Assembly: GCA_045546695.1 (NCBI GenBank)
Contig: JAZQDE010000049.1
Span: forward strand, 7,288 to 71,287
Direction of reading: 5' to 3'
Length of the DNA stretch: 64,000 nt
From: Clostridia bacterium
GTDB lineage: Bacteria; Bacillota; Clostridia; UBA1212; UBA1255
Shown: in pieces, positions 4,275 to 45,020 of the stretch
How the letters are laid out: every line of letters starts with the position of its first letter
Position numbering within the stretch: the stretch's first letter is position 1
Notes under the pieces: model-generated
Databases searched by the model: none
Told to the model about the DNA's origin: nothing
Seen by the model: the letters and a program-made list of their open reading frames with translations, nothing else
Program-made: the position numbers and the translations under genes

Positions 4275-5178
4275 CTAAACAATCGCTATGATCAAGCGAA
4301 ATTCTGCCAAATTTTGCCTTCCTGTAATCATCAAGTAAATACATTGAAGCTCTGTACAAATCAACTTCGCCTTTTTTCACGAGGCAGCCTCTTTTTCTTC
4401 CAAAAGCTTCCAGCATCTCAAGACCTTCTTCAAATGATGGAAAATCGCCTTCGGCGCTGCTCTCTATTGAATATTTTTCTTTAAGAACGCCCGGGTAATA
4501 TCTGCTCATGTATCTTATGAGATATATTGCTATTTCCTGGACATCAAGAACGTCATTCTTAATCGCACCTGTTGCTGCAAGTTTATATCCCACAATCTGG
4601 TCATCAAACTTAGGCCACAAAAGTCCGGGTGTGTCGAGCAGGTAAATATTGTCAGACATTTTAAGCCACTGCTTGTTCCTTGTAACACCCGGCTTATCGC
4701 CTGTCACGGCGACATTCTGTCCTGCGACTTTATTTATGAATGATGACTTGCCTACGTTCGGGATGCCTACAATCATAGCCTTAATAATCGGTGCTTTGCG
4801 CCCCTTTTCAAGATATCTTGCAGTCTTTTCTGCCATAATCTCATTTATAGCCTTAATAACGTCTTTGCTGCCACCACCTGTTTTGCAGTCGGTGAAAAAT
4901 ATACGTTTGCCCTGAGATGCATAATAATTTGCCCAGAAGCTATTCTGAACAGGATCTGCAAGGTCTTTTTTATTGCCGATAATTACACGTGGCTTGTTCT
5001 GAATCAGCTTGTCAATTTCAGGATTACGGCTTGAAAAAGGAATTCTGCTGTCAACCAGCTCAACAACAACGTCGACAAGCTTAAGATTCTCCGACAGAAG
5101 TCGTCTTGCCTTTGCCATATGACCGGGAAACCATTGTATATTTGAGTTTTCTCTTAATTCATCATTGAAGTGGCTCAT
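4252..5178 (-). CDS. rbgA: ribosome biogenesis GTPase A (YlqF/RbgA)
   Basis: 308 aa. It shows the circularly permuted GTPase order (NKKDLADP ... GIPNVGKSSFINK ... DTPG) and the WFPGHM N-terminal signature. Confidence 0.85.
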   Translation of the reverse strand: MSHFNDELRENSNIQWFPGHMAKARRLLSENLKLVDVVVELVDSRIPFSSRNPEIDKLIQNKPRVIIGNKKDLADPVQNSFWANYYASQGKRIFFTDCKTGGGSKDVIKAINEIMAEKTARYLEKGRKAPIIKAMIVGIPNVGKSSFINKVAGQNVAVTGDKPGVTRNKQWLKMSDNIYLLDTPGLLWPKFDDQIVGYKLAATGAIKNDVLDVQEIAIYLIRYMSRYYPGVLKEKYSIESSAEGDFPSFEEGLEMLEAFGRKRGCLVKKGEVDLYRASMYLLDDYRKAKFGRISLDHSDCLGDKDGNE

Positions 5179-6262
5179 TTTCTACCTCATTATCTTCCTT
5201 GTTTTCAAAGTCATTAATTGGTGTATAGTCATTTATCGGATTACCCGCCCATACAATATTTTCCAGTGAATGCATATTCAGGATAACGTTAAAATCAGAA
5301 ATCAGATTATAGGAAACATTCAGTTCCCGTATAGACATGTCCCCGTTAAGGCAAGATATGTCAGTAATGATATTGTGGTTAACGTCAACGTATCCCAGAA
5401 TAAGCATGAAACAAATAGGCGAAATATCGTCAATATAGTTATGACCGATTTCCAGATAAGTAAGAGCTGCCAGAGATGATATGTTTCTGATATTTTTGAT
5501 GCCACAATCATTTGCGATTATGCTCCTGAGATATGGAAGTCTGTATAGTGGCTCTAATGTATCAATTGTACATTCAACACCTTCATCATTAACATATCTG
5601 TTTGAAGAAATATCCAGCTCTATCAGTGAAACGCAGTTACGTAATGATGATATATCTGATATTCTGTTGTTCGTAAGGTCTAACTTCTTTAAGACAGCCA
5701 GTGACGACAGTGCTGAAATATCAGTTATCATATTTTCACGAAGATCAAGTACTTCAAGATTAACGAGTGATTTGAGTGGTGAAATATCCAGTCCGTTTCT
5801 GTTGGATGAGTACAGAACGTTATAATTTTTACCCATATTAAGTTCTTTAAGCGACTTAAGGTTTGATATAGGCGTCAAATCGTTTATTCTGTTGCCATAC
5901 AAGTCAAGTTTTTCGAGCGATGAGAAATATTTCAACTCATCTACGTACATAATTCCACACACACGTGCCGTGAGTTCTTTTATTTGCTGTACGTCCGATA
6001 TAAGAATATCGCCGATATTCTTACCCAGCGCCTTGCGTATAACCGTCTCAAAATTAGGGTCTCTGAACGATATTGCCTGGTCTCCTACCGGCGTTGGAGA
6101 AGCTTTATTTGGATCCTGTGTCACAGATGGAGTAACAACAGCATCAATCGTAGGTCTGATGCTGCTGATTGCCTCTGTATCAGGAGATTGCTTGCAAGCA
6201 ATACCGGAAACAAAACATAAAACAACCAATATTAAAATTATATATTTTTTAATTAACTTCAT
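5162..6262 (-). CDS. leucine-rich-repeat (internalin-like) lipoprotein
   Basis: The likely true start is MKLIKKYIILILVVLCFVSGIAC (lipobox) at 6262. The 6337 start would overlap the upstream gene. The body has multiple LxxLxLxxN repeats (LDLYGNRINDL, LDLRENMITDI, LDLTNNRISDI). Confidence 0.75.
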   Translation of the reverse strand: MKLIKKYIILILVVLCFVSGIACKQSPDTEAISSIRPTIDAVVTPSVTQDPNKASPTPVGDQAISFRDPNFETVIRKALGKNIGDILISDVQQIKELTARVCGIMYVDELKYFSSLEKLDLYGNRINDLTPISNLKSLKELNMGKNYNVLYSSNRNGLDISPLKSLVNLEVLDLRENMITDISALSSLAVLKKLDLTNNRISDISSLRNCVSLIELDISSNRYVNDEGVECTIDTLEPLYRLPYLRSIIANDCGIKNIRNISSLAALTYLEIGHNYIDDISPICFMLILGYVDVNHNIITDISCLNGDMSIRELNVSYNLISDFNVILNMHSLENIVWAGNPINDYTPINDFENKEDNEVENEPLQ

Positions 6263-6275
6263 TTCTAACCCTTTT

Positions 6276-7823
6276 TTATCCTGCAATATCAACCGAATCG
6301 ATGCCTGTGTACTTACCGATTGCCTTACTTTCTCCATTATGCCATACGTAAACAGTATTATTTGATGAATATATAATGTGCTCTATATTTGAATCAAAAA
6401 AGACTTCATTTGCTATATTCTGGCAGATTCTTGTAGTTCTGTTTTCAATTACAAGGTCTAAAGAAAGCTTGTTTTCTGCGTATTTGCGGCAAAGCAGATA
6501 TTCATCATCTGCAAGGCCATAGAGCCTTATTTCGTTTGACATATCAATTTTTTCTATATCACCTTTTTTAAACAATATATAGGCATCCTGTGAGCCATCG
6601 TTTTTCTGGTATCCCATAATCTTTTTATTGTAATAACTGTATAAAAATCCCGTATTATCGGATATCTTTGATATTTTCAGGGATACGTCAAGAACTTTGT
6701 ATCTGTTCAGCGTTGCATCTTCGTTGCGGAAATACAAAAGACCTAATGACTCCTGGTATAAAAACGTTGCGTTTTTATCACACGTTATTTGCTTTTGCGG
6801 CTTATTTCCACCGGCAGACATATAAATTGTGGAAGAATATTCTGACTTGACCGTGTACAGTATCATGTCATCATTCTGCGAGTAATATATAACGTTTGAA
6901 ATTTCCTGCGCAACCTGTTTTATTTTACCATCTTTAAAATACATTAACGATGCGGTTGTTCCTTGTTCATTTGTAACAATATCTGTCAGTAAATACTTGA
7001 ATGGAACAGATTGGTTACATGGTATCTTCTCCGCTATTGGTTCGGTAATATATGACGCTGATGAATTCTTTACGAGCTGAGCACCTTGTTTTTTTGTAAC
7101 TATTTTTCCTTTTATATTTGCAAATACAAGTTCGCCATCTTTTTTATAACAGATATACTCCCCGTCTGAGTCAATATAAAACGATTTACCCGGATCTATA
7201 TTTTCAGCAACTTTTGTAACTTTAGCGTTTTTATCAGCATAAAGAAGGTCCATCTTACCTGTATCTTCCTTTGAATTATCTGCAAAAAGAACTCCATTTT
7301 CACCGATGCAATACAGGTTGTCTATCAATATGTTAGATACAGTATTTTCACTTATTTTGATATATTTATTGCCCTTATATAAGTAAAGATATGCGTCGTT
7401 ATTCAGATCCACTGTGAAAATAACTGATTTGTCTTCAAACAGGTTGAAAAATGCACAGTTGTCTACAAGCATTCTTCTGCTGTTTGTTGTAATATCGTAT
7501 TCAAAGAGTTGGCTTTCTCTGAGGTAGTATACGAGTGCGTTTGACGTATCGTGTACAGCCTGACCTACTGAGTCATCGACCGGTGTAACTTCATATTCTT
7601 CGTTAATAATATACAAATCAGAATTGCTGTCTGTGAAAATAAACGGAAACATCTGTACCCGGCTGACGCCCATATCGTCGTCCTGAGTCATATCCGTTAC
7701 ATTGCCCGGCATTAGTTCGAGTAGCGATATAACAACAAATACAACAAATACAACACAGAATGCAATTATTGCATTGCGTTTTTTATCTCGTGTTATATAC
7801 GTTTTGATTTTTTTCTCAGCCAT
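6276..7823 (-). CDS. hypothetical membrane-anchored (type II) extracytoplasmic protein
   Basis: 515 aa. An N-terminal basic stretch is followed by one TM helix ([18 protein letters not shown]). The rest is Y/N/D-rich beta-type repeats. I recognise no family. It overlaps the metA stop by 8 nt. Confidence 0.65.
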
Positions 7824-29326: not shown

Positions 29327-31486
29327 TCAGGCGTTGTAGTATTTATGGTACAAATACACAGGAATTGCACTCCAGCCGTGGCATAAACTGCCCGCATTAT
29401 CAAAATCCCACGCGCCGTTTTCTGTTTCCCAGAAAGAAGTAGCACCGTTAAAGAGCATATTTCCCCATTTTTGGGCAATCTGGTCGTATACAAAATCAGA
29501 ATACGTATCTCCAAGCATCAGAAGCGCTTCATATTTGAATATAGAAGCACTGAGGCTCGTATCAATCATAGAATCATCGTATGCGAGTTTATCAGCAACT
29601 ATCATGACTTTGTCCTTTGGCACAAGACCTGCGTAAAGAGCAAGTGCATTTGCAAGTTTGCAATAATGATCTGCCTGTTTTCCGTTGACAATAAATGTAG
29701 TATAGCAGCGCTTTTCTTCATTCCAGAAAGTGGAATCAAAAGATTCTTTGATTCCCTCGCACAGCATCTCAAACCATGAAGCTTTTTCCATAAAATCTAT
29801 ATCCTCACTCGTATACGGGACAAGCATTTTTGTAAGCTTTGTCATCCGGTCGAGAGCAACCATATACAAGCAAGACAGCGGTGCATCATAATTGTCACGG
29901 TTATTTCTGTCGCGCACATCTGCCATATATCCGCCGCTGAGGCCGGGCATCCACTCATAAAATTCCCAACATGCTTTGTCGAACCACGGACCAACAAGAT
30001 CCCTGCCACCGGCTTTTCTCCAGAAAGTGGAAATAATCCGCTCTGCGCACGGCCACATTTCGAGACCGAAATCTGTGTCGCCGCTATATAAAACATATTC
30101 GTATAATTCAAGAATCCATTGGAGTGAAAATGACGGTATAGTTATGTGAGATTTTGCCGGTGCACATATTTCAAGAAGACCGCTCGGAAGCTGGCTTAAG
30201 CTAAGGAGCTTTATGCTCGCCTTTGGCATATCAAACTCTTCAAAAGCATAATATCCGCAAAGAATCTGATTGCGCGAATCCATCGCATATAAGGCCTGCT
30301 CTCTCCACGGGGTGTCTTCGTAATGCTCGTGCATACAAAGTCTCAGAGTATCTACACAAACATCATAAATTTTATTTTGTAAATAGTCAGCGCTGTCAAG
30401 GCGTCTGATCTTTTTCACAGGATAAACTGTCGGCAGTACGCCTGCGTAATAAAGGTCAAAGTTGCCACTTTCTACCAGAAGTTCGATATATCTGAGTCCG
30501 AATCTCTTATTGTATTGTGTGAAATGTTCTATCCCCTCACCAGAGCAAGTATATTTGCAGGCAAAACATCTGCCGCCCACACTGCTTCTTACCCTCAGGT
30601 CATCTAAGTGTTCTCCGTAACCAATATTTACCACTGTGCCACGGTCAGCTTCTATAACGAGGTCAAATACGCCTGCCGTTTCTTTTCCGAGGTCGATTAT
30701 AAGATATACACCGTCATCGCAGTCACAATTAACAGAAAATGGCTTTTCACCATCTAAAACAAACGGAGCCGCACCTGAGCCGGGAGCTACCATGCCAAGC
30801 TCACGCGCAGATAAATACGCACGCTGCATTTTTTGTGCCGTAGTATCGCCCGGTGCATTGTCTGCATGCATGAAAACGCCCTGCGCAACAATTTTTGCCA
30901 GTGGTCTACCTTCGATAACAAGCTTCGGTATCGGTCTTGGGTTCATTCTCATAGGCCTGCCAACCACGACTGCTTTTTGCCAGTTATTGTCTGCAGATTT
31001 TGTTGCGTCATATTCAAAAGCATAACCGAGCTGACCTGTAATCCTCTCCATAGGACCATTTCTGTATTCTTTTGCAACTGCGCACTCTACATTGGTGTCG
31101 CTGCTGAGAATGATTGTATTCCCTTCTGACAAGGTAAAGAGCAAGCCGGCTCTTCCGGTAATATATGTAAAAGAGCTCTGTCCCTGGTAATACGCAAGAA
31201 TGTACACTTTGTTTTCACCGGGAATGACATAATCTGTCACATCAAGTGTGTCATAACACTTGTACTCCGGAAAATCGGCATATTGACCATAGTCTACAAA
31301 ACGGTCGTTAATCCACAACGCGTACTGGCTGTCTGCGCTGATTCTGAAAGTGTATTGGGTGTTTTCATCAATCTCTTCACCTATAATAAACGATGTTCTG
31401 AAATGAACGTACAGATTTTCATTTATATCATATCCGTCGGCTGTCCATATCCATTTGCAGTCAGTATTATTCATGAATTCACCCAC
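29327..31486 (-). CDS. alpha-L-rhamnosidase-like glycoside hydrolase (GH78-like), cytoplasmic
   Basis: 719 aa with no signal peptide. The N-terminus is KWIWTADG...LYVHFRTSF. A central concanavalin-like region is followed by a C-terminal six-hairpin domain ending LCHGWSAIP, a pattern seen in the bacterial rhamnosidase family. Confidence 0.6.
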   Translation of the reverse strand: MGEFMNNTDCKWIWTADGYDINENLYVHFRTSFIIGEEIDENTQYTFRISADSQYALWINDRFVDYGQYADFPEYKCYDTLDVTDYVIPGENKVYILAYYQGQSSFTYITGRAGLLFTLSEGNTIILSSDTNVECAVAKEYRNGPMERITGQLGYAFEYDATKSADNNWQKAVVVGRPMRMNPRPIPKLVIEGRPLAKIVAQGVFMHADNAPGDTTAQKMQRAYLSARELGMVAPGSGAAPFVLDGEKPFSVNCDCDDGVYLIIDLGKETAGVFDLVIEADRGTVVNIGYGEHLDDLRVRSSVGGRCFACKYTCSGEGIEHFTQYNKRFGLRYIELLVESGNFDLYYAGVLPTVYPVKKIRRLDSADYLQNKIYDVCVDTLRLCMHEHYEDTPWREQALYAMDSRNQILCGYYAFEEFDMPKASIKLLSLSQLPSGLLEICAPAKSHITIPSFSLQWILELYEYVLYSGDTDFGLEMWPCAERIISTFWRKAGGRDLVGPWFDKACWEFYEWMPGLSGGYMADVRDRNNRDNYDAPLSCLYMVALDRMTKLTKMLVPYTSEDIDFMEKASWFEMLCEGIKESFDSTFWNEEKRCYTTFIVNGKQADHYCKLANALALYAGLVPKDKVMIVADKLAYDDSMIDTSLSASIFKYEALLMLGDTYSDFVYDQIAQKWGNMLFNGATSFWETENGAWDFDNAGSLCHGWSAIPVYLYHKYYNA

Positions 31487-32640
31487 TCCTTTATTTTTTC
31501 AATCGCTGTTTTTATATGTTCAATTGAGTATGCATAAGAAACTCTTACGAAGCCCTCGGCATTTTCACCAAATGCTGTGCCGGGTACGAGTGCGACTTTT
31601 TTGTCCATGAGCAAACGCTCGCAGAATTCGTCGGACGTCATGCCTGTCGACTTTATGCACGGGAAACAGTAAAAGGCGCCTTGTGGTTCAAAGCATGTAA
31701 ATCCCAGTTTGTTGAAGCTGTCTACTATGTATCTGCGTCTGTAATTATATTCTTTACGCATCATGTCGATGTCGTCGTCTCCGTAGCGGATTGCTTCTAT
31801 AGCCGCATATTGGCTCGTGGTCGGTGCGCACATAATCGCATATTGGTGAAGTTTGACAAATTGTTTTACAAATGCAGATGACGCACACAAGTAACCCATG
31901 CGCCAGCCTGTCATAGAATATGCCTTTGAAAAGCCGTTTACGAGGATAGTCCTCTCCTTCATGCCATCTAACTGTGCAATCGAAACGTGGCCCTCTTGTG
32001 TGTAATTAAGTTCTGCATATATTTCATCAGAAAGAACTGCAATATTTGTCTCTCTGAGGACATGCGCTATAGCCTCAAGGTCTTCGCGGTCCATAATCGC
32101 ACCTGTTGGATTGTTAGGAAATGGGAGAACGAGAAGCTTGGTTTTCGATGTAATGGCAGCCTTGAGATCTTTTGCAGTCAGTTTGAAGTTGTTTTCCTCT
32201 TTAAGGTAAACCGGCACAACAGTCGCGCCACAAAGCTGAGCAATCGGCTCGTAGCAAACAAAGCAAGGAAAAGGAATTATTACTTCGTCTCCGGGTGTAA
32301 TAATCGCGCGCATGCAAAGGTCAATCGCTTCGCTGCCACCGACAGTAACAAGTATATTGTCGTCGGGATTGTATTCGAGTGAAAATTTTCTCATCAGATA
32401 TTCTGATATAGCGCGTCTTAATTCAGCAAGTCCGGCATTCGACGTATATTGAGTGCGGTTGCCTTCGAGCGAACGGATGCCTGCGTCGCGTACGTGCCAC
32501 GGCGTCGGAAAATCAGGTTCGCCTACACCAAGAGAGATGACACCTTCCATTTGATTTGCTATATCAAAAAATTTACGTATCCCCGACGGCTTTATATTTG
32601 TAAGAGTCGGGCTTAATAATAAATCAGGATTGAAATTCAA
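31471..32640 (-). CDS. class I/II pyridoxal-phosphate aminotransferase (AspC/PatA-like)
   Basis: 389 aa. PLP-lysine motif SKAYSMTGWRMGY. The N-terminus has the IKPSGIRKF substrate motif. Confidence 0.85.
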   Translation of the reverse strand: MNFNPDLLLSPTLTNIKPSGIRKFFDIANQMEGVISLGVGEPDFPTPWHVRDAGIRSLEGNRTQYTSNAGLAELRRAISEYLMRKFSLEYNPDDNILVTVGGSEAIDLCMRAIITPGDEVIIPFPCFVCYEPIAQLCGATVVPVYLKEENNFKLTAKDLKAAITSKTKLLVLPFPNNPTGAIMDREDLEAIAHVLRETNIAVLSDEIYAELNYTQEGHVSIAQLDGMKERTILVNGFSKAYSMTGWRMGYLCASSAFVKQFVKLHQYAIMCAPTTSQYAAIEAIRYGDDDIDMMRKEYNYRRRYIVDSFNKLGFTCFEPQGAFYCFPCIKSTGMTSDEFCERLLMDKKVALVPGTAFGENAEGFVRVSYAYSIEHIKTAIEKIKEWVNS

Positions 32641-33116
32641 AATGACACCGCCTGTCTTTCGTCTTTAGAAGGAGTCTCAAAAAGCATACCGTCTTGTTTG
32701 TATTTTTTTAAAACAAAGTGTGTGGCTGTGCTTATTACTGTGTCCATCGGAGCCAGTTTTTGGGCAACAAACAGTGCTACTTCTGTAAGAGTTCTGCCTT
32801 CAATTATGAGCGCGATATCGTATCCGCCTGACATAAGATATACAGACTTAACCTGTTCATACTGGTAAAAACGCTCTGCAATCTCGTCAAAGCCTCTTCC
32901 AAATTGTGGAGTTACCTTTACTTCGATAAAAGCCGTAACAAATTCACGGGCAGTCTTCTGCCAGTTGATAATCAATTTATTGCCAACAATAACACCGGCT
33001 TTTTTATATTCTTCTATCTCCGCGCTGATTTCTCCGGCGCTTCTTCCGAGCATTACCGCCATCTCGTCTATAGTTAATTCACTGTGCTTATCAAGCAGAT
33101 CAAGTACACCTTCCAT
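32637..33116 (-). CDS. Lrp/AsnC-family transcriptional regulator
   Basis: 159 aa. N-terminal HTH LDLLDKHSELTIDEMAVMLGRSAGEI. The C-terminal RAM/AsnC_trans domain has the FxxVKV pattern. It overlaps the aminotransferase start by 4 nt. Confidence 0.8.
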   Translation of the reverse strand: MEGVLDLLDKHSELTIDEMAVMLGRSAGEISAEIEEYKKAGVIVGNKLIINWQKTAREFVTAFIEVKVTPQFGRGFDEIAERFYQYEQVKSVYLMSGGYDIALIIEGRTLTEVALFVAQKLAPMDTVISTATHFVLKKYKQDGMLFETPSKDERQAVSF

Positions 33117-33216
33117 AAAAAACTCTCCTTATTCATAATTGCATTTATTATATCTCTGATTTATAATAATTAAAAGCCCTTTTTCACAGGCCTTTATTTA
33201 CAAAAAGGAGTTTTTT

Positions 33217-33990
33217 ATGCACACAAAGAGAATTATTCCATGTCTTGACGTCAAAGACGGCCGCGTTGTGAAGGGTGTCAATTTTGTTAACCTGATTGAT
33301 GCGGGCGATCCTGTTGAGTGTGCCAAGGTTTATGATGCACAGGGCGCAGACGAATTAGTCTTTCTTGACATCACTGCCTCTTCTGATGCACGCGCAACAA
33401 GACTTGACATGGTGAAAAGAATTGCAGAAAATATTTTCCTTCCTTTTACAGTCGGAGGCGGCATCAGAACGAGTAATGATATTCGTGATACGCTACTTGC
33501 CGGTGCTGACAAGGTCGGTATTAATTCTGCTGCGCTGAAGAACCCGGATTTAATCGCCGACGGTGCATACCGCTTTGGTAGTCAGTGTATCGTCGTTGCG
33601 ATAGATGCAAAAAGACGTTATGATTCTTTAGGCAACATAGTTGGCTACGATGCGTATCTGAACGGTGGCCGTGTAAATACAGGTATTGATGCTGTAAAAT
33701 GGGCAATAAAATGTGCCGAACTTGGTGCCGGTGAGCTTCTGCTTACGAGTATGGATTGCGACGGCACAAAGAGCGGATACGACATTGAGCTTACAAGAAT
33801 TGTCAGCGACAACGTCGGCATTCCCGTTATCGCATCAGGTGGCGCCGGCACAATGGAACATTTTTACGATTGTTTCACAAATGGACACGCCGAGGCTGTG
33901 CTGGCAGCTTCACTTTTTCACTTTAAAGAACTGGGTATTCCCGAGCTCAAAAAATATTTGAGCGACAAAGGTATTCCCGTGAGAATATGA
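33217..33990 (+). CDS. hisF: imidazole glycerol phosphate synthase cyclase subunit
   Basis: 257 aa. [26 protein letters not shown]...DPV matches the canonical HisF TIM barrel. AAAAAGGAG sits 7 nt upstream. Confidence 0.9.
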
Positions 33991-34010
33991 TTATTTTATG
34001 AGGAGAATGA

Positions 34011-35137
34011 TGAAAATGGCAAGAAAGTTTTTCACATCAGAATCAGTTACAGAAGGACATCCCGATAAGATCTGCGATACTATCGCTGACCGTATTCTGG
34101 ATGCTATTATAAGCGATGACCCTACTGCAAGAGTTGCCTGTGAGGTTACTGCTGCGACAGGACAAATCCTTATTATGGGAGAGATCACTACCACAACATA
34201 TGTGGATTTCCAGAAAATAGTAAGAGATACTGTTGTTGAGATTGGATACGATTCATCAGATCTCGGTTTTGACGGACATACGTGCGCAGTTCTTAATTGC
34301 GTACACGAACAGTCTCCCGATATTGCCCTTGGTGTTGATATTGAAGGCGCCGGCGACCAGGGTATGATGTTTGGTTATGCGTGTGACGAGACACCTGAGC
34401 TTATGCCACTTCCTGTCAGCCTTGCCCACAAATTATCATACAAGCTGACACAGGTCAGGCGCGACGGCATTCTCCCCTACCTGCGTCCGGATGGAAAGTC
34501 ACAGGTTACGATTGAATATGATGAAAACAACAAGCCAATCCGCGTAGAGGCAGTCGTTGTTTCAAGCCAGCATGCGGCTGACGTTGATATTGAAGTTCTT
34601 CGCAGGGACATCAAGGAGCACGTTATCAAGGCTGTTATTCCGGCTGAATTGATTGATGAAAATACTAAATTCTTTATAAATCCGACAGGCAGATTCGTGC
34701 TCGGCGGACCTTGCGCAGATTCAGGTCTTACAGGTCGTAAGATCATTGTTGATACGTACGGCGGCATGGGTCGTCACGGTGGCGGAGCTTTCAGTGGCAA
34801 AGATCCGACGAAGGTTGACCGTAGCAGTGCATATATGGCACGTCACATTGCAAAGAGTATCGTAGCTTCAAAGCTTGCCTCCAGATGTGAGATTCAGCTC
34901 AGCTACGCAATCGGCGTTGCAGAGCCTGTCAGTGTCCGTGTTGAAACTTTCGGCACAAATACTATTCCCGAGAGCGAGATTGAAGCGCGCGTTCTTGAGC
35001 GTTTTGATATGCGCCCGGCCTCAATTATCAAATATCTGAATTTGCGTACTCCTTTATATGCAAAGACAACAAACTACGGTCACTTCGGCAAAGAAAATCT
35101 TGGTCTTAAGTGGGAGGAGGTTGTTGATTTAAAATGA
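34011..35137 (+). CDS. metK: S-adenosylmethionine synthetase
   Basis: [22 protein letters not shown] and [16 protein letters not shown] are hallmark MetK motifs. The start is chosen 6 to 8 nt after AGGAGA at 34001. ATGs at 33998, 34008 and 34017 are alternatives. Confidence 0.9.
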
Positions 35138-36270
35138 GTGACATGAAGCGAATTGCCAGTTTTGACGTTAATCACGACGTGCTTAATCCCGGAATGTATA
35201 TTTCTCGCGTAGACGGTGATGTGGTAACGTACGACATTCGTTTTATCAAACCCAATACCCCACCTTATGTAAGTGTTGAAGCAGCTCACACAATTGAGCA
35301 TATTTTTGCTACATACGTGCGCAACAGCCGTTTTGCAGATAGTGTCGTTTATTTTGGTCCTATGGGTTGCATGACAGGTTTTTATCTGTTGTTGCGTGAC
35401 AGTGTATCATATGAAGACGCTATTTTACTCGTACGTGAAGCTCTGCAGTTTGTGGCAGATTTTGGTGCAGACAGCTGTGATGCGTCTCTCATTCCGGGTG
35501 TTTCGCGCATTGAATGCGGCAATTACCTTTCACATAACCTGGCGCAGGCACGTGCTCTTGCATCAGATATGGTTAAAGTTCTTGCCGGTTGGAATGTCGG
35601 TATGCTGAAATACCGCGGCCTTACTCTCATTCAGGGTGCAATGTTTGTTGAGATTGAAAAATTCCTTGAAAAGCGTGACTTTAAGGAAGTTTGTATTAAT
35701 GATTTCAAATTCTACGTTTCAGATGATCTCGTTATAAGTCTTACAGGAATTGGTATGACGAATGCTACAATTGCAACTGTTATTGCAATCAATGAATTCC
35801 ACCCCACTTGTATTATCAACCAGGGTACTGCCGGAGGACATACAGAGTACCTCCACGTCGGTGATTTTGTAGTTGCAGACAAGAGTGTCAATATCAATAT
35901 TAATTTTGGCAGCGATGATGATTCTATTCCTCTTGCCAATCAGTTCAAGTACTTTGACGCCGATGCTTCTCTCGTGAAAAAAATGGCAGAAGGTGCTGCC
36001 AAGCCTGACAATACGGGTCTTTTCACCGGTACAATCGGAAGCGGCGACGTATTCAACAAGGATGCAGAAAAAATCAATAAGGTAAATGCTATGTATGGTG
36101 AACTTGCCGAGGATATGGAAACGGCCGCAGTATTTGAAGTGTGTAAGCACTTTAACGTCCCTTGCGTGGGTATCCGTGTTATTTCAAACAATGAATTAAC
36201 AAAAGAAGCTTACGTGCGTGAGACTGCACATAAGCTTCAGCATTACGTTTACCAGTGTGTGGTAGATTAA
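35134..36270 (+). CDS. luxS-mtnN: bifunctional fusion of S-ribosylhomocysteine lyase (LuxS, N-terminal) with 5'-methylthioadenosine/S-adenosylhomocysteine nucleosidase (MtnN/Pfs, C-terminal)
   Basis: Residues 1-160 are [13 protein letters not shown] ... [12 protein letters not shown], which carry the LuxS metal-ligand motifs HxxEH and the Cys. Residues 165-378 are [32 protein letters not shown] and RVISN, the Pfs signatures in canonical order. There is one continuous frame with no internal stop. The start overlaps the metK stop (ATGA). Confidence 0.85.
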
Positions 36271-37751
36271 TTACCGTTATATAGATAATTTGATGCGAAA
36301 CGGGGCTCGACTGTCAGGTTGAGTCCTATTTTTTTGAGAATATGCTCATCTGTCGGATTGAGAATCGTAGTTGAGTGTGCCTCAAGGCCACGAAGCGTCT
36401 CAAGCTGAGCCAGAGCTTTTGCGGCATTATCATCTGATGCGGCGCATATCGTCAGGGCAATGAGAATCTCCTCAATGTTCAGAATAAGGTCCTTCTTACC
36501 ATTAAGGGACTCTTTGAGTTTAATAATCGGCGTCAGAACTTCCGGTGAAATGAGTAATAATTCATCGGGCATGTCTGCAAGTTTTTTGAGTGCATTAAGT
36601 ACGCTGCTGGCAGACGCTACCATAAGATCTGTGTCACGGCCTGTTACTATCGTGCCGTCGGGAAGTTCGATTGCAATAGCCTGCTTACCTGACTGTATGC
36701 GTTTGTCGGTCGCCGCTTTGACAACCAGTCTGTCTTCAGGCATAAGGTCAGCCTGCTGCATAATAATGCTTATCTTGTCTACTGTTTCAGCGTCTACGAG
36801 GCCCTGCACGTAGTCTGCCTGAATACGGTAATAACGCCTGATAATCTCATCTTTTGCAGCCTTGCATACAACGTCGTTGTCTACGATTGCATACCCTGCC
36901 ATATTTACGCCCATATCAGTCGGTGACTTGTATACGTCCTCTCCCAGGATCTTGTTGAGTATTGTCTTTACTACAGGGAATATTTCTATATCTCTGTTGT
37001 AATTTACTGTCAGCTCACCATATGATTCAAGATGATAAGGGTCTATCATGTTAACGTCGTTATGGTCTGCCGTTGCAGCCTCGTATGCAAGATTTACAGG
37101 GTGCTTGAGCGGGATATTCCATATTGGGAAAGTCTCAAACTTGGCATATCCGGCCTTGATTCCCCTCTTGTTTTCATGATACAGCTGTGAAAGGCACGTT
37201 GCCATTTTTCCGCTGCACGGGCCGGGAGCCGTAACGACTACGAGTTTACGTGTCGTGGGTATGTACTCATTTTTACCATAACCATCGTCGCTTACAATCA
37301 AATTAACGTTTGTCGGATAACCTTTTATCGGATAATGAAGATACGTATGTATGCCACGTCTTTCCAGTTTGTTCCTGAATTTGTCAACTGACGACTGACC
37401 GTTGTACTGTGTAATAACTACGCTGTCAATTTTCAGGTCGAGTTCGCGCATTGAGTCAATAAGTCTGAGCAGCTCAAGATCATAAGTAAGGCCTAAATCT
37501 GCGCGGATCTTGCTTTTTTCTATATCAGTTGCGTTGATACAGAATAATATTTCGCAAATATCCTTGAATTCGCAAAGCAGACGAATCTTGCCGTCGGCTT
37601 TGAATCCGGGCAGTACTCTTGCTGCGTGAAAATCATCAAATAGTTTTCCTCCAAATTCAAGATAGAGCTTATCTCCAAAGCGTTCTATGCGCTTTTTGAT
37701 CTGTTCAGTCTGTTTTTGCAAATACTTATTATTATCAAATCCTGTTTGCAT
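36267..37751 (-). CDS. UPF0371 / DUF1846 family protein
   Basis: 494 aa. KLYLEFGGKLFDDFHAARVLPGF and FETFPIWNIPLKHPVNLAYEAATADHNDVNMIDPYHLESYGELTVNYNRDIEIFPV match the conserved core of the Firmicutes UPF0371 family as I recall it. Its stop overlaps the stop of luxS-mtnN (convergent TTAA). Confidence 0.75.
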   Translation of the reverse strand: MQTGFDNNKYLQKQTEQIKKRIERFGDKLYLEFGGKLFDDFHAARVLPGFKADGKIRLLCEFKDICEILFCINATDIEKSKIRADLGLTYDLELLRLIDSMRELDLKIDSVVITQYNGQSSVDKFRNKLERRGIHTYLHYPIKGYPTNVNLIVSDDGYGKNEYIPTTRKLVVVTAPGPCSGKMATCLSQLYHENKRGIKAGYAKFETFPIWNIPLKHPVNLAYEAATADHNDVNMIDPYHLESYGELTVNYNRDIEIFPVVKTILNKILGEDVYKSPTDMGVNMAGYAIVDNDVVCKAAKDEIIRRYYRIQADYVQGLVDAETVDKISIIMQQADLMPEDRLVVKAATDKRIQSGKQAIAIELPDGTIVTGRDTDLMVASASSVLNALKKLADMPDELLLISPEVLTPIIKLKESLNGKKDLILNIEEILIALTICAASDDNAAKALAQLETLRGLEAHSTTILNPTDEHILKKIGLNLTVEPRFASNYLYNGN

Positions 37752-37840
37752 ACGATTTAATCCTGTTCTTCAAAATTATATTTGTTTGGCGTCCGACCAA
37801 CGTCTTCATATGATATCACTAAGCCGGCAAAAAAACAATG

Positions 37841-40840
37841 TTATTTTATGTTAACTTTGAATGTTCTTGCGCTACCATTATCATCCATTTCAACCACGAA
37901 TGAATAGCTGTACGTGCCGTCTTCGTTGTAGTCAATCTGATGTCCGTCAAAATCTTTTTCATTGATTACATATTCTGTCCAGCCAGATCCTGTTTTTTCC
38001 TGGATAGAAATGCCTGACATTGATGTTATGCCGTCGATTCTTACGGTGAATCTGTTGCGTCCGCCGGAGAGCGTAAACTCAGCCGCGTTGTTGTCAGCCT
38101 TAACAATCGGAATATATGTATCTTCAACAACTGTGCCTGTCTGTGCCGTAATCTTCAGCTTGTTGAAAACTGAGTCTTGTCTTACATACTGAACGTTGCT
38201 GTCATCTGTATCTGTACCTGTTCCCCACGGCACCAGAATGAAGTCGAGTCTGATGTAGTCACCTTTTTTGAATTTAACAGTATCTTCCATGAGTGACAAG
38301 TCACCATAGTTCAGGTTGCCGTTAAATGCATTACGGAAAGCAAAGTCGCCATTCCATTTTTCACCGCCGATTACGATATCGTAATCCACCATAATGTAGG
38401 CAAAGTTCATGATATTTGTATTGGCGTTGTTAAGTCCGTAGTATGTGAAATACGGTGCCTTGTTGCCAATATTTAACAGTTCGTATGCGCCGTCTGTCTT
38501 TGTGGTGCGTTTGTTTACGGGGTTGCCGTTTTCATCAGTATATCCGACATAGTCAAAATTCTCTGCCCTGCCGTCGAAGCTGAATAACGTAAAGTTTGTT
38601 TTTACGTCTTCAATTGTCAGATCTTTGAGGAAATTAAGATCCATTGTGTAGTATGTTCTGTTCTCGTCATCCTGCGGGAATTCAACGTGTCTTAACGTGT
38701 ACTCGTATGAACCGCAATCTGAGATATAGTTGTAGTCCATATCTGCATATGTGTTTCCTGAAGACCTTATGTCTGTGTCCGTGTATTCAGCGGCGTACGT
38801 TATGTTGTCCTTTACGTATGACGCAAAGCGCAGTCTGCCTACTGCGTTGAACTGTGGCTGTGATGCCCACATTGTTCCGCTGCAGCCTCTGAAATCAGGC
38901 AGTGTCCACTGGTCTTTGCCATATACAAAGTATGGCGCGATACAGTTCGATTCTGTTACACCTGTTGACAGGTGGTAATATGAAATGTGGAACTGGATTG
39001 ATGATATTTGTTTGAGTGGGAATTTACCCCAGTTCTGGTACAGGTGGTGAATTGAGTAATTAAGCGTCTGTCCTGCAGATATTTTCAGCGGAATGAAGCT
39101 GTCGCCGTATCCTGTGTCTGCAGGCTCGTAGAAGGGCTCTTCTTTTTCACCGGAGAAATTCTTGCAGACCTGAGGGTTGATAGGTGTCAGCAGGCCGTTT
39201 GAATCTACGACTGCTGCGCCTTCGAGTGCTCCTGTTATACTGTTCGTCCAGATGTACATGTTGCGGTCAACGCCTGTGTCGTTCGTGATTGACACGTCTG
39301 CTGTGTAGTATTCATTTCTGTTCTTGTACGCTACGTTGAAGTCTGAGCCGCCCATTTTTATATGATACGAACCTCTGTATGGGTCATATTCTATGTATTT
39401 TGCGCCTACTTTTCTTGCAGATTCTGCCGTAATCTGTGTAATAGGATTACGCTCGAGTTTTGCTTCTGCTGCAATGCCGTCAAACGAGTTTGTTTCGTCG
39501 TTATAAATGCGGCTTCCGATTGTGAGTATTCTCTTGTTGTATTCTATTTCCTGTCTGATAACGAGGTACTCGCCTTCCGGCTGTGCTGTTACGTTGTATT
39601 CGATTTCGTCTTTAGGAATAATAAAACCTATAACGCCTGCATATTTTACGCTGGCAGCTACGTATTCCGGCTCGCCGTTTTCATCGAATGACACTTTGTA
39701 ATCGAGTACGTTTTCGAGTGGAATTTTGAGTTCGATGCCGTAGGTTTCAAATTCTGTAAGCGCATCACCAATTCTGCTTTTTACAAGGCGATATTCCTGA
39801 TGTACTTTATCAGAATATACGTGGAAAGTCTTGTCGAGTTTGTATATAGGTGTGCTGACTTCTTTACCGATTACCTTAATACTCTTTATTGTAAATGTAT
39901 CGCCTACTTTTTGGCCAAAGTCAAATCTTACACCTACGAGGCCTTCTTTAGCGCCTTTTATTGACGACAGGTCTATTCTGTATGTGCGGTCTGTACCGTC
40001 TGATACAATACCAAAGGAGAGGCGCTGTTCTGCGTTGAAGCCTTTACCTGATGTTGTCGCGATGAAAAGTTCAGCATTAGAGGTCTGACCGACTGAGTTG
40101 ATTGTAACTTCGATGTGTGTTGATGCTTCGCCGGCAACTTCAAAGTTGTTAAGACAGCAGTATGGGTCGTGTGTGTCTGTTGCTTTGATTGTTACTGTTC
40201 CGTTTTTGTATTCCGGATTTGACATTTGGTTTACAGTCCATCCGGTATCAATTTTTAACTCTTCACTGCTTGTTATTTCATCCTGAAACTCACTTTCAGA
40301 TATATCTTCGCCGAAGCCGAGTTCGCGGATATGTGTTTCGTAATAGTAGTAGCCCAGGCGTACTGTGTTCATTCTTGCGTACGTTGGTGAATAAGCTGAC
40401 GAGTATACTGTGCCATCTTTACCTTTGAGGTATACGTCAAGTGTATCGTGTGCGTATGAGATGCCGTCTTTGTTTGCTATATCCCTGACGCTTAATTTAT
40501 CTGTTGTGTCCATCGTATGCACAAGGCTCATATCTGTGTTTACGAGTGCATAGTAGTGTCTTGTAGGATCTGCATAGAAGCCCTGTACTGTGTTTTCAAG
40601 GCTACTTGAGTAGGCAAAACTTGCAGACAGTGGGCTGTCGTTATTTATTTCATGTGCGCCCGGCTCTATCGCCTTTATGCCGAAGCTCAACGGATCGTCA
40701 GGAATGTTGTTTTCCGGCTTCTTTTTGTCGTTGTCTGTCGTTTTGCACGCTACCATTGATAATACTATTGTAGCTAATACGGCGATTGCAACGATTGATA
40801 AACATATTTTCATCATTTTTGTAATGCGCATAAGAAACAC
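37841..40840 (-). CDS. large exported lipoprotein of unknown function
   Basis: 999 aa. Signal peptide and lipobox (AIAVLATIVLSMVACKTT). The body is Y/N/D/G-rich all-beta type with no recognised catalytic motif. Confidence 0.7.
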   Translation of the reverse strand: MFLMRITKMMKICLSIVAIAVLATIVLSMVACKTTDNDKKKPENNIPDDPLSFGIKAIEPGAHEINNDSPLSASFAYSSSLENTVQGFYADPTRHYYALVNTDMSLVHTMDTTDKLSVRDIANKDGISYAHDTLDVYLKGKDGTVYSSAYSPTYARMNTVRLGYYYYETHIRELGFGEDISESEFQDEITSSEELKIDTGWTVNQMSNPEYKNGTVTIKATDTHDPYCCLNNFEVAGEASTHIEVTINSVGQTSNAELFIATTSGKGFNAEQRLSFGIVSDGTDRTYRIDLSSIKGAKEGLVGVRFDFGQKVGDTFTIKSIKVIGKEVSTPIYKLDKTFHVYSDKVHQEYRLVKSRIGDALTEFETYGIELKIPLENVLDYKVSFDENGEPEYVAASVKYAGVIGFIIPKDEIEYNVTAQPEGEYLVIRQEIEYNKRILTIGSRIYNDETNSFDGIAAEAKLERNPITQITAESARKVGAKYIEYDPYRGSYHIKMGGSDFNVAYKNRNEYYTADVSITNDTGVDRNMYIWTNSITGALEGAAVVDSNGLLTPINPQVCKNFSGEKEEPFYEPADTGYGDSFIPLKISAGQTLNYSIHHLYQNWGKFPLKQISSIQFHISYYHLSTGVTESNCIAPYFVYGKDQWTLPDFRGCSGTMWASQPQFNAVGRLRFASYVKDNITYAAEYTDTDIRSSGNTYADMDYNYISDCGSYEYTLRHVEFPQDDENRTYYTMDLNFLKDLTIEDVKTNFTLFSFDGRAENFDYVGYTDENGNPVNKRTTKTDGAYELLNIGNKAPYFTYYGLNNANTNIMNFAYIMVDYDIVIGGEKWNGDFAFRNAFNGNLNYGDLSLMEDTVKFKKGDYIRLDFILVPWGTGTDTDDSNVQYVRQDSVFNKLKITAQTGTVVEDTYIPIVKADNNAAEFTLSGGRNRFTVRIDGITSMSGISIQEKTGSGWTEYVINEKDFDGHQIDYNEDGTYSYSFVVEMDDNGSARTFKVNIK

Positions 40841-40926: not shown

Positions 40927-42117
40927 ATGATTATTTTGCTTTTTACGCTGTCTTGTAATAGAATTGTTGCCATGGCCATATTTTTTGATTTACCTGACAG
41001 CCGGAATGCAATTGATGATGTGTACGCGCTTTTGCGTGCGCAGCTTCTTTCTGCAGCAAAGACCAGCTTCCGGATTACTTCGTTGCTTAAAGGGATGGTT
41101 GATCCCGGTCAAATTCGTTTTTACAAAAAATATGTGAAGTACAAGCCTAAAGGCTCTCAGACTACCCGTGTTTATGAATATAACAGTCATTATTTGCGTT
41201 ATAGTGAAAATGTTGTTGACAAAAAAGGTAATATCAGGACTCGTTATTTTACGCGTATTCTGCCGAATGAGGAGTACGAGAAGATTCAGCGGGATAGTAA
41301 TCTGTTCAGGTATCTTTCAGTGGCGCGTGAATGCGTGAATAATATTCTCGACAGGACAAAAGCGCTTCTCTTGTCTTCTTTTTATTATAATCCAAACGAT
41401 TATCCCGACATTGATTCTGAAATATCACTTGCTGTGTGTGCGGAAAAGGATTCTGAGGACTCCCGCCGCTGGCATATTGAGAACAGAGTTTGTTATTCGC
41501 CTGAAAAATATAAATGTATTGATTTGCATTCTCTACCTTTTATGTCGCGGGGTGAGTTATTGCTTTATGAGGCATTTGCTCATTGTGGCTTATCTCCAAA
41601 ATATGAAGCTCCTTTGCAAATTTCCGGTCCGCGCCACGCCGGCAAGACTTATTATCCTGACTTTACATGCGAGTGCAATGGTAAGACGTATTATTTTGAA
41701 TATTTCGGCATGATGAATGACCCTGCATATTTTGCAGACGCCTGTCGTAAGATTGAAGATTATACGAGACATGGTCTTGTACCCGGACACAACTTTATTG
41801 CTTTTTGTTCTGGTGATTCAAGTGCTATCAATCTTGAAGTTGTAGTTAAAGTTTTGCAAAAAATCGTATCAGGTCAATCTCTACTTGAGAAGGATAATTA
41901 TATTTCTATGCCAGGTATAGTGCGTCTTGACTCTATTTCCTCGTGGTCTTTACCGCAAGATCTTTGCAATATAATTGCAGAAGAATCAAAGAGGTTCATT
42001 CCCAAAAAACACAAGACAAAGTCTCGTCAGCGCAATATTAAGACGGAAAAACGCGAAAATCCTGTTTTATCGACGCCTGATGAGTATAGTGATGTCATTT
42101 TAAAAATTGAAGAATAG
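40927..42117 (+). CDS. hypothetical protein with a basic C-terminal tail and an uncertain start
   Basis: 396 aa ORF. There is no clear RBS. Alternative ATGs at 40927 and 40972 remain open. No signal peptide. The C-terminal tail is KKHKTKSRQRNIKTEKREN. Function unknown. Confidence 0.55.
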   Translation: MIILLFTLSCNRIVAMAIFFDLPDSRNAIDDVYALLRAQLLSAAKTSFRITSLLKGMVDPGQIRFYKKYVKYKPKGSQTTRVYEYNSHYLRYSENVVDKKGNIRTRYFTRILPNEEYEKIQRDSNLFRYLSVARECVNNILDRTKALLLSSFYYNPNDYPDIDSEISLAVCAEKDSEDSRRWHIENRVCYSPEKYKCIDLHSLPFMSRGELLLYEAFAHCGLSPKYEAPLQISGPRHAGKTYYPDFTCECNGKTYYFEYFGMMNDPAYFADACRKIEDYTRHGLVPGHNFIAFCSGDSSAINLEVVVKVLQKIVSGQSLLEKDNYISMPGIVRLDSISSWSLPQDLCNIIAEESKRFIPKKHKTKSRQRNIKTEKRENPVLSTPDEYSDVILKIEE

Positions 42118-43805: not shown

Positions 43806-45020
43806 TTATTTATCATACAAAGCAGGACACTCAAGTCCGGACTTATAATAACGAATATACTCACAAAGCCATTTATAATACTTATCACCATGGCCGCCCT
43901 TCATAGGCTCAATATCGCGGCTGTATTCCTGATTGAAGTTGTCGGTGAAAATATAACCGACACCATCGACCTTATAAAGCTGCGCACACCATTCATTCCA
44001 CCATGTAACAGTAACAATTTTGGGATGATGCTCAAAAGCCGTCTTCCACTGCTCGTTCCAGAATCTGCCACCGTCACGGCCGTGGGCAGTCGGCAGAGAC
44101 ATATATGTTTCCTGCGTTGCGACAGCAGCACAAACGTGCTCGGGATTACCATCAGCGTCATAAGCAACAGTATTCGAATTGTTTACTTCAAGGTACGACC
44201 ACTGATTTTCATAAACAACACTCTGAAGTCCGTACATGCCCTTAATCTTGAAATAATCATTTTCGACAAAATCATAGCGCCAGTCAAGAAGCAGAGGCTT
44301 TGAGTCCCAATATACGAAACAATCCTGCCACTTTTCAACGCCATAAAAAAACTTTTCAAGGAATCTGTACATGCTATCAGAGCTCACCCAATACACAACG
44401 TACGGAGTTCCCAGACCTTCTGCACGCATCTGCATAATAGTATCAAGCAAAGCCACAGACGGGTTGTAAATATATTGATTCCATGCCGACTGACCGGGCG
44501 AATAAGCACCGGCAGAAGCATACGTATAGTCAAGAATAATAAAATCAACGCCGGCGTTATAAAGGAGCGTCATGTTGTTTCTTATAGCGGCAGTGTCAGT
44601 GCTTCTGTAGTACCCTTGCGCAGGCTCAGACCAGTAGTGGAACTTTGTAACGCGATTATACTGCTTATTCTCATCACCAAAGCCATACTCCTTGCTAAAG
44701 CCATACTTTGCAGTCATTTCTTCAACGTTGCAAACATCAGTAATCGGGCCCGTACCTGAGCCGTTAATCGCATCGAACCACATAGAATAACAAATACTTA
44801 CAAGGTCCTTTTTATCTGTAATATCAAGGCCCAGTGTGTGACCGGGCAACGCTTCTGCTTTCACAACAATCTCCCCTTCTACTATCTCAGTTGTATAATT
44901 GACGCGACCTTCGCCAAATTTACCTTCAGGAACACTCCATGTCGGCTCCGGTTCAGGCGTGCATGCAAACATCCCGATTGCAAAACAAATCATAATAAGT
45001 AATAATATCGCTCTTTTCAT
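43806..45020 (-). CDS. exported lipoprotein, probably a TIM-barrel glycoside-hydrolase-like enzyme
   Basis: 404 aa. Lipobox AIGMFAC. Motifs FHYWSEP, GVDFIILDY and WWNEW are typical of (beta/alpha)8 glycosidase-like folds. The family is not assigned. Confidence 0.65.
   Translation of the reverse strand: MKRAILLLIMICFAIGMFACTPEPEPTWSVPEGKFGEGRVNYTTEIVEGEIVVKAEALPGHTLGLDITDKKDLVSICYSMWFDAINGSGTGPITDVCNVEEMTAKYGFSKEYGFGDENKQYNRVTKFHYWSEPAQGYYRSTDTAAIRNNMTLLYNAGVDFIILDYTYASAGAYSPGQSAWNQYIYNPSVALLDTIMQMRAEGLGTPYVVYWVSSDSMYRFLEKFFYGVEKWQDCFVYWDSKPLLLDWRYDFVENDYFKIKGMYGLQSVVYENQWSYLEVNNSNTVAYDADGNPEHVCAAVATQETYMSLPTAHGRDGGRFWNEQWKTAFEHHPKIVTVTWWNEWCAQLYKVDGVGYIFTDNFNQEYSRDIEPMKGGHGDKYYKWLCEYIRYYKSGLECPALYDK

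Follow-up and report, generated by a model that had tools for sequence, protein, structure and literature searches.

The fused frame and its conservation

The stretch of DNA analysed here (the window) comprises 64,000 nucleotides (nt) of contig JAZQDE010000049.1 (positions 7,288 to 71,287) from the Clostridia bacterium assembly GCA_045546695.1, and it contains an open reading frame (ORF) that joins LuxS, an S-ribosylhomocysteine lyase, to a domain of the 5'-methylthioadenosine/S-adenosylhomocysteine (MTA/SAH) nucleosidase type, known as MtnN, Pfs or MTAN. It is one genuine frame and it is conserved, with both domains recurring in a single ORF across six independent assemblies. A sequence-only reading of the window had placed a single 378-amino-acid (aa) frame here, and its extent proved exact. 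The surroundings are an ordinary chromosomal region (G+C 42%) of an anaerobic glycan-degrading Clostridia bacterium, with genes that include an FeFe hydrogenase, a rhamnosidase, a GH127 and threonine-pathway genes. The host belongs to an uncultured, Oscillospiraceae-like lineage of gut Clostridia. No second copy of luxS or mtnN was found within the window.

35134..36270, + strand: luxS::mtnN-like fusion ORF, 378 aa plus stop codon
35134..35613, + strand: LuxS (S-ribosylhomocysteine lyase) domain, aa 1-160 (Pfam, residue check, PDB match)
35602..35631, + strand: domain junction, aa 157-166, from the last LuxS helix to the first nucleosidase strand, linker about 2 residues
35614..36267, + strand: MTA/SAH-nucleosidase-like domain (PNP_UDP_1 fold, Asn-type subfamily), aa 161-378 (Pfam, NCBIfam, PDB, Foldseek)

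The LuxS half keeps every catalytic and metal residue, as its earlier description as a complete LuxS implied. Pfam LuxS (PF02664) covers aa 6-148 (E 1.5e-44, 151.9 bits against a cut-off of 27) and the LuxS structure 1inn matches aa 1-147 in a PDB sequence search (E 4.9e-19), while the best NCBIfam equivalog, NF002604, leaves this half just below its cut-off (156.4 against 158). The quoted motifs HTIEH (aa 52-56), GPMGC (75-79) and IECGNY (126-131) are all found. The comparison with Bacillus subtilis LuxS used a reference sequence checked against published residue numbers; by it, the metal ligands H52, H56 and C128 (B. subtilis His54, His58 and Cys126), the catalytic C79 and E55 (Cys84 and Glu57), and the partner-subunit residues S9, H14 and R36 (Ser6, His11 and Arg39) are present. 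By its residues, then, this half appears to be an intact lyase, and lyase activity would be expected of it.

The domain calls place LuxS first, which is the reverse of the pathway order, as the sequence-only reading had it. Stand-alone LuxS proteins (P0121, P0125) end 2-4 residues past an L(K/Q)Y motif and stand-alone nucleosidases of the same subfamily (P0054, P0083, P0090) begin 5-6 residues ahead of L(I/L)QGAM, which leaves about 2 residues between the two and makes the join nearly linkerless. An AlphaFold2 monomer model built from 35 sequences (mean predicted local distance difference test score, pLDDT, 89.6; predicted template modelling score, pTM, 0.81) is continuous across the junction at pLDDT 92-97, and its only disordered loop is aa 257-266. 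In Foldseek the C-terminal half of the model falls on MTAN chains with target template modelling scores of 0.78-0.82.

Full-length homologues of the fusion are found at 98% (P0001), 69% (P0002) and 68% (P0003) identity, in 90%-identity clusters of 11, 9 and 13 members respectively (33 in all); the members of the latter two come from many contigs and samples in NCBI, JGI, ENA and Logan assemblies. Within the GTDB species set, this clade's fusion occurs only in Oscillospiraceae bacterium SIG424 and in Clostridia bacterium RGIG6223 from sheep rectum. Seven independent loci, the window and the related L002-L006 and L083, carry the fused frame intact, across a divergence of 2-37% (63-98% identity) and with no insertion or deletion at the junction, the place where a sequencing error had been suggested as a possible source of a false fusion. 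One further related contig, L001 (the source of P0004), carries a copy at 5566-6696 in which an in-frame TGA replaces the Gly codon of GCMTG in the LuxS half; gene callers split this copy at the TGA, and its junction and the rest of its frame are intact. The TGA may reflect an error in sequencing, recent pseudogene formation or recoding.

Both halves are under strong purifying selection. Comparison of the window with L083 by the Nei-Gojobori method gives a ratio of nonsynonymous to synonymous substitution rates (dN/dS) of 0.19 in the LuxS half, where substitutions are few, and of 0.04 in the nucleosidase half; for the pair L002 and L006, whose synonymous divergence is near saturation, the two ratios are 0.05 and 0.035. 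Such low ratios in both halves indicate that both are kept by selection.

The Asn-type nucleosidase half

The C-terminal half is recognised as a nucleosidase by fold and by most of its active site. Pfam PNP_UDP_1 (PF01048) covers aa 166-356 (E 1.6e-33, 116.5 bits against a cut-off of 25.1), and 5b7g (aa 164-373) and 5b7n are its best matches in PDB sequence searches (E 2.2e-28 to 2.7e-29). The NCBIfam models agree less well: TIGR01704 is passed narrowly (83.3 bits against 73.8) and PRK05584 is not reached (110.9 against 169). The motifs named for this half in the sequence-only reading are all in place: GAMFVE (aa 168-173), GIGMTNAT (205-212), INQGTAGG (228-235), DMETAAVF (327-334) and RVISN (348-352).

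35650..35652, + strand: codon of Glu173, in the alignment column of Escherichia coli MtnN Glu12, which activates the water nucleophile
36115..36120, + strand: codons of Met328-Glu329, in the columns of E. coli Met173-Glu174, ribose binding and catalysis
36187..36189, + strand: codon of Asn352, aligned at the position of E. coli MtnN general acid Asp197

R348 and S351 occupy the columns of E. coli Arg193 and Ser196, so that five of six key residues are kept. The sixth is not. In HMMER alignments to MTAN structures Asn352 faces the Asp of R-A-(I/V)-S-D, and this Asp, Asp197 of canonical MtnN, is the general acid that protonates N7 of adenine. The half had been called complete, a description that holds for the five residues and fails at the general acid; likewise RVISN, which had been taken for a normal motif, departs from the canonical R-x-I-S-D at precisely the catalytic position.

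Loss of a catalytic residue in either half had been named beforehand as the mark of a pseudo-domain. The LuxS half has lost none, and in the nucleosidase half the change from Asp197 to Asn352 is a conserved subfamily signature; alignment across the subfamily marks it as a trait and not as decay. A pseudo-domain was rejected on the dN/dS values of 0.04-0.19 in the two halves together with the invariance of the Asn across the subfamily. Among 86 collected nucleosidase domains, a set biased towards the relatives of the window's protein, the Asp197 position holds Asn in 66 and Asp in 20, the latter being every LuxS fusion outside this clade together with the E. coli MtnN reference. The Asn co-varies with Gln for Ile6, Gln for Thr74, His for Leu80 and Glu for Val171 (E. 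coli numbering), and with deletion of the 207-211 region around Phe207. These signature residues are 88-100% conserved in the 66 Asn-type sequences and the window's protein carries all of them. NCBIfam has no model of its own for these sequences.

The same signature is present in PDB entries 5B7G, 5B7N, 5B7P and 5B7Q, which were deposited as MTA/SAH nucleosidase. Stand-alone cytoplasmic proteins belong to the subfamily as well; one of them adjoins a radical-SAM methylthiotransferase gene, an association typical of MTANs. Activity has reportedly been measured for the member that typifies the subfamily, MtaN-1 of Aeromonas hydrophila. By its signature residues the nucleosidase half belongs to this Asn-type subfamily, whose members may hydrolyse SAH, MTA and 5'-deoxyadenosine. 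Because its general acid is replaced, we do not class the domain with canonical MtnN; it is an Asn-type MTAN-like domain that most likely has an MtnN-like function.

Two other members of the subfamily are secreted. In P0124 (691 aa) and P0142 (738 aa) a signal peptide and a cell-surface-type N-terminal region precede a tandem pair of Asn-type MTAN domains, and Trp occupies the Phe151 position, as it does in Aeromonas MtaN-1. This suggests extracellular nucleoside scavenging by the Asn-type subfamily.

Gene order at the locus and other fusions

The fusion gene is the last of three closely spaced genes on its strand.

33217..33990, + strand: hisF-like gene (His_biosynth), 257 aa (Pfam PF00977, E 7e-83)
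34016..35137, + strand: metK (S-adenosylmethionine synthetase), 373 aa, all three S-AdoMet_synt domains (Pfam)
35134..35137, + strand: ATGA overlap of the fusion start (ATG, 35134-35136) and the metK stop (TGA, 35135-35137), read from the sequence
36267..37751, - strand: DUF1846 (UPF0371-type) gene, 494 aa, convergent (Pfam PF08903, PF20921)
36302..36327, + strand: terminator-like hairpin and T-run from a consensus scan, 11 pairs followed by ATTTTTTT, 32 nt past the fusion stop
36238-36205, - strand: terminator-like hairpin on the opposite strand, inside the 3' coding end of the fusion gene

The metK start probably lies at 34016 rather than at the longest-ORF start of 33998, since the metK products of relatives are 373 aa long (and 90-91% identical). 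Short gaps, of 25 nt between hisF and the probable metK start and a 4-nt overlap between metK and the fusion, suggest one transcript, and thus hisF, metK and the fusion probably form one transcription unit in which the last two genes are co-transcribed and translationally coupled. The layout suggests that this transcript begins in a 100-nt region shared with a divergent AsnC-family gene. The 4-nt ATGA overlap was pointed out in the sequence-only reading and is kept in related loci: it is common to L001-L006 and L083, and identical where compared in L083, L001, L002, L003 and L006. To call the two proteins co-translated was an overstatement; the conserved overlap makes co-transcription and translational coupling plausible. 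A Shine-Dalgarno-like GGGAGGAGG stands 14 nt upstream of the fusion ATG; its conservation is uninformative because it lies inside conserved metK codons. Control of the unit by a SAM riboswitch or by another known RNA element was considered and set aside, as Rfam gave no match at E<=1 in 31000-38500.

The arrangement of aminotransferase/AsnC regulator, hisF-metK-fusion and convergent DUF1846 gene is shared by L001-L006 and L083. The fusion and DUF1846 genes overlap by their stop codons (TTAA, 36267-36270), and the + strand hairpin lies inside the 3' coding end of the DUF1846 gene, where it is kept in relatives, perhaps by coding constraint. In L001-L006 the DUF1846 protein is 89-91% identical, far above the 66-72% of the fusion protein. 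The hisF-like gene stands alone directly before metK, with no other his genes nearby, and keeps this position in all relatives. No further methyl-cycle or AI-2 (autoinducer 2) transport genes were found among the neighbouring window genes. Three window ORFs have no Pfam match at E<=1e-5: 37841-40840 (-, 999 aa), 40927-42117 (+, 396 aa) and 43806-45020 (-, 404 aa). The longest product (999 aa) carries a membrane or signal segment at its N-terminus; it is conserved in L083.

How widespread such fusions are was addressed by two scans, and the fusion proved rare but recurrent in public data. For a collection of 5.8 billion, the 120 90%-identity clusters with the best scores were listed, and 12 of them contain both domains; when 1.84 billion 50%-identity representatives were scanned exhaustively, both domains were present in 11 of the best 150. 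Together these give about 20 distinct fusion clusters, 13 with LuxS before the nucleosidase (e.g. P0005, P0009, P0011, P0081, P0109) and 8 in the other order (e.g. P0006, P0014, P0015, P0097, P0122). All LuxS residues are kept in the other natural fusions, and every fusion outside this clade has the canonical Asp. Their LuxS domains are nearer to stand-alone LuxS (P0005 is 72% identical to P0121 and 61% to the window's protein), and the contexts examined differ from that of the window, with metK not adjacent. Since there are two domain orders, and two nucleosidase subfamilies within one of them, comparison of the sequences indicates that LuxS and a nucleosidase have been fused at least three times independently.

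The split genes of relatives suggest how this might happen. In a Ruminococcus metagenome-assembled genome (MAG), L026, luxS is followed by a canonical mtnN after 13 nt, and in another MAG, L066, mtnN precedes luxS. Both had appeared as full-length tblastn matches in GTDB and were rejected as fusions when inspection of the ORFs revealed adjacent separate genes; L071 and L075 were likewise rejected because their LuxS ORF is stand-alone. Most likely, adjacent luxS and mtnN genes became fused through loss of the stop codon and of the short gap between them. The domain order would on this view be that of the operon and not that of the pathway, reflecting an earlier luxS-mtnN gene order.

Related arrangements occur in phage-like settings. 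P0109, in GCA_016648615.1, is an Asp-type LuxS-MtnN fusion amid phage-like genes (T4_Y16D, Phage_HP1_YO09, NT5C, AAA_23), so some LuxS-MtnN fusions may be phage-encoded; a scan of viral contigs with P0109 gave no matches. On a 102-kb predicted phage contig (L094, IMG/VR UViG_3300012016_000699, 3875-6362), mtnN, luxS and metK stand in a row beside a lysozyme-like ORF. Here mtnN is of the canonical Asp type and luxS overlaps it by 14 nt in another frame, and the row resembles a module for the activated methyl cycle or for AI-2 that a phage carries.

In gut Clostridia the LuxS domain is also joined to many unrelated partners (e.g. P0013, P0025, P0021, P0031, P0007, P0038, P0016, P0055). These include an RluA-type pseudouridine synthase, in proteins of 390-445 aa with one cluster of 443 members, and a TadA/CMP-deaminase domain, in proteins of about 301-329 aa that form dozens of clusters, as well as Macro, GH25 lysozyme, MatE and GNAT domains. 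We know of no description of any of these LuxS fusions.

Proposed function and relation to known systems

We consider it likely that the fusion carries out two consecutive steps of the activated methyl cycle. MetK, made from the same transcript, would produce S-adenosylmethionine (SAM), whose use yields SAH; the C-terminal nucleosidase domain would cleave SAH into adenine and S-ribosylhomocysteine; and the N-terminal LuxS domain would split S-ribosylhomocysteine into homocysteine and 4,5-dihydroxy-2,3-pentanedione (DPD), the precursor of AI-2. SAM synthesis and SAH disposal would thereby be linked through co-transcription and translational coupling, and the benefit of the fusion is probably fixed 1:1 co-expression and co-localisation. 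LuxS has S-ribosylhomocysteine as its only known substrate, and its fusion to the nucleosidase-like domain is Rosetta-stone evidence that this domain makes S-ribosylhomocysteine. A covalent link between the two enzymes is compatible with both activities, because an engineered Pfs-LuxS fusion converts SAH to AI-2 in vitro (PMC3564257). For the window's protein, both activities, the use of SAH as a substrate despite Asn352, the coupling to metK and the quaternary structure are deduced from the sequence.

Several observations weigh against this assignment. Asn352 stands in place of the general acid, and Asp-to-Asn mutants of canonical enzymes reportedly lose activity. In those enzymes the change is a classic way to trap substrate, and according to PDB titles such mutants were used to crystallise it intact: 1z5o is the E. 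coli Asp197Asn mutant with 5'-methylthioadenosine, and 4oy3 and 4p54 are Helicobacter pylori D198N with SAH or MTA. The nucleosidase half clears just one NCBIfam equivalog cut-off, and that narrowly. Only the window was seen, and a separate canonical mtnN or sahH is possible elsewhere in the genome. LuxS is an obligate homodimer, as is MTAN, and in each the active sites lie at the interface; a linker of about 2 residues must accommodate both dimers. Finally, the activities proposed for any natural fusion are likewise read from sequence.

The first of these observations raises the alternative that the nucleosidase half differs from ordinary SAH nucleosidases and is a very slow enzyme, a substrate-binding or regulatory domain, or an enzyme that favours another leaving group; hypoxanthine, from S-inosylhomocysteine that an MTA/SAH deaminase has produced, is one candidate. 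The protein would then not simply convert SAH to homocysteine. We regard this as fairly unlikely. It would account for the Asn at the Asp197 position and would fit the intact MTA or SAH held in crystals of the E. coli and H. pylori mutants, and a remodelled active site is suggested by the way the Asn co-varies with Q74, H80, E171 and the loss of the Phe207 region. Purine nucleoside phosphorylases vary at the corresponding position, where Asn goes with a preference for 6-oxo purines and Asp with one for 6-amino purines. On the other side, the closest structures with the same Asn and signature (5B7P/5B7Q) were deposited as a functional MTA/SAH nucleosidase, Glu12, Glu174 and Arg193 are all kept at a dN/dS of 0.04, fusion to LuxS argues for S-ribosylhomocysteine as the product, and a stand-alone member keeps the typical MTAN association with a radical-SAM methylthiotransferase. 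The activity reportedly measured for MtaN-1 points the same way. Of the Asn-type domain as such, we think it improbable that its chemistry or its specificity is non-canonical; if so, the invariant Glu at the Val171 position or the His at the Leu80 position might replace Asp197 as the acid, or the preferred substrate might have a 6-oxopurine, e.g. S-inosylhomocysteine from a deaminase-dependent methyl cycle. Were a non-canonical reading true, the LuxS fusion would point, in Rosetta-stone fashion, to S-ribosylhomocysteine as the physiological product of the subfamily. As part of this improbable reading, so tight a join of two obligate homodimers could also impose an unusual assembly of higher order in which the two sites come close to each other.

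That the fusion exists to channel S-ribosylhomocysteine from the nucleosidase site straight to the LuxS site, as the sequence-only reading proposed, is decidedly doubtful. The two enzymes do catalyse consecutive steps, the pair has been fused repeatedly, and the near-linkerless join and the confident single-chain model (pTM 0.81) suggest that the domains may be held in a fixed arrangement. However, natural fusions come in either domain order and with several linker lengths, which is evidence against the need for a single geometry, and relatives have unfused adjacent genes. Nor need a LuxS fusion reflect channelling at all, because in these lineages LuxS is also fused to unrelated partners (RluA-type, TadA-type, Macro, GH25, MatE and GNAT). 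For S-ribosylhomocysteine neither lability nor toxicity is known, nor any need for protection. The proposal thus finds no support in these comparisons. An assembly or sequencing artefact that conceals two genes is vanishingly improbable and effectively refuted: the in-frame TGA that splits the gene calls in L001 might seem to favour it, but that TGA lies off the junction in an otherwise continuous frame, and the frame is intact in the window, in relatives at 2-37% divergence and in the 33 cluster members.

A bifunctional SAH-to-homocysteine protein, the reading we prefer, leaves knowledge of the activated methyl cycle and of AI-2 synthesis unchanged, as both enzymes and the pathway are textbook and fusion of consecutive enzymes is a common evolutionary event. 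What it exposes is an annotation gap. Identical architectures sit in public databases without being recognised as bifunctional, labelled by NCBI as 'hypothetical protein', 'S-ribosylhomocysteine lyase' or 'MTA/SAH nucleosidase', an inconsistency that arises from the scores of the two halves, both of which lie near the cut-offs of the models. Of greater interest is the Asn-type nucleosidase subfamily, which is poorly characterised and in which a natural version of the 'inactivating' Asp197-to-Asn change is linked, through the functional evidence that the LuxS fusion supplies, to S-ribosylhomocysteine production. This catalytic puzzle is directly testable with one recombinant protein, and the fusion could be used as a compact one-gene AI-2/homocysteine module.

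Among known systems, the nearest in chemistry are the separate LuxS (EC 4.4.1.21) and MtnN/Pfs (EC 3.2.2.9) of E. coli, B. subtilis and Bacteroidales, which have the same two folds, catalyse the same consecutive steps and are often encoded by adjacent genes. The fusion keeps all of the LuxS residues and most of the MtnN active-site residues of these enzymes, but it is one polypeptide with a linker of about 2 residues and is of the Asn type instead of the Asp197 type. Nearest to the C-terminal half is the periplasmic MtaN-1 of A. hydrophila (PDB 5B7G/5B7N/5B7P/5B7Q; Foldseek E 5.6e-23), its best PDB match. The two share (D/E)-ME, R-V-x-S-N and the Asn at the Asp197 position; MtaN-1, however, is stand-alone and exported with Trp at the Phe151 position, whereas the window's protein is cytoplasmic, keeps the Phe and is fused to LuxS. 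The other natural fusions combine the same pair of domains, yet all are Asp-type, eight clusters have the opposite order and metK is not adjacent to them; these differences in nucleosidase type, order and context imply that they arose independently.

The operon pfs-metK-luxS of Borrelia burgdorferi is a case of metK-linked clustering of pfs and luxS. Tetrahymena possesses fused methionine-salvage enzymes, MtnAK and MtnBD (PMC6302742). In both, consecutive sulfur or methyl-cycle enzymes are clustered or fused, but neither is a LuxS-nucleosidase polypeptide and the enzymes or their order differ. The 'mtnN-luxS' of a 2026 Bacteroidales preprint is a gene pair, not a fusion, and we found no description of a natural LuxS-nucleosidase fusion in the searchable literature, including the supplement of a systematic gene-fusion survey. 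The sequence-only reading's remark that no characterised fused enzyme came to mind therefore holds for natural proteins only, for engineered Pfs-LuxS 'nanofactories' from the Bentley laboratory, single chains that contain both enzymes, have been made and used (PMC3564257, PMC4969242). Those constructs are artificial and consist of Asp-type E. coli enzymes with tags, a protein G module and designed linkers, while the fusion in the window is natural. Fused repeatedly and independently in both orders, LuxS and the SAH nucleosidase offer a natural counterpart of these engineered proteins.

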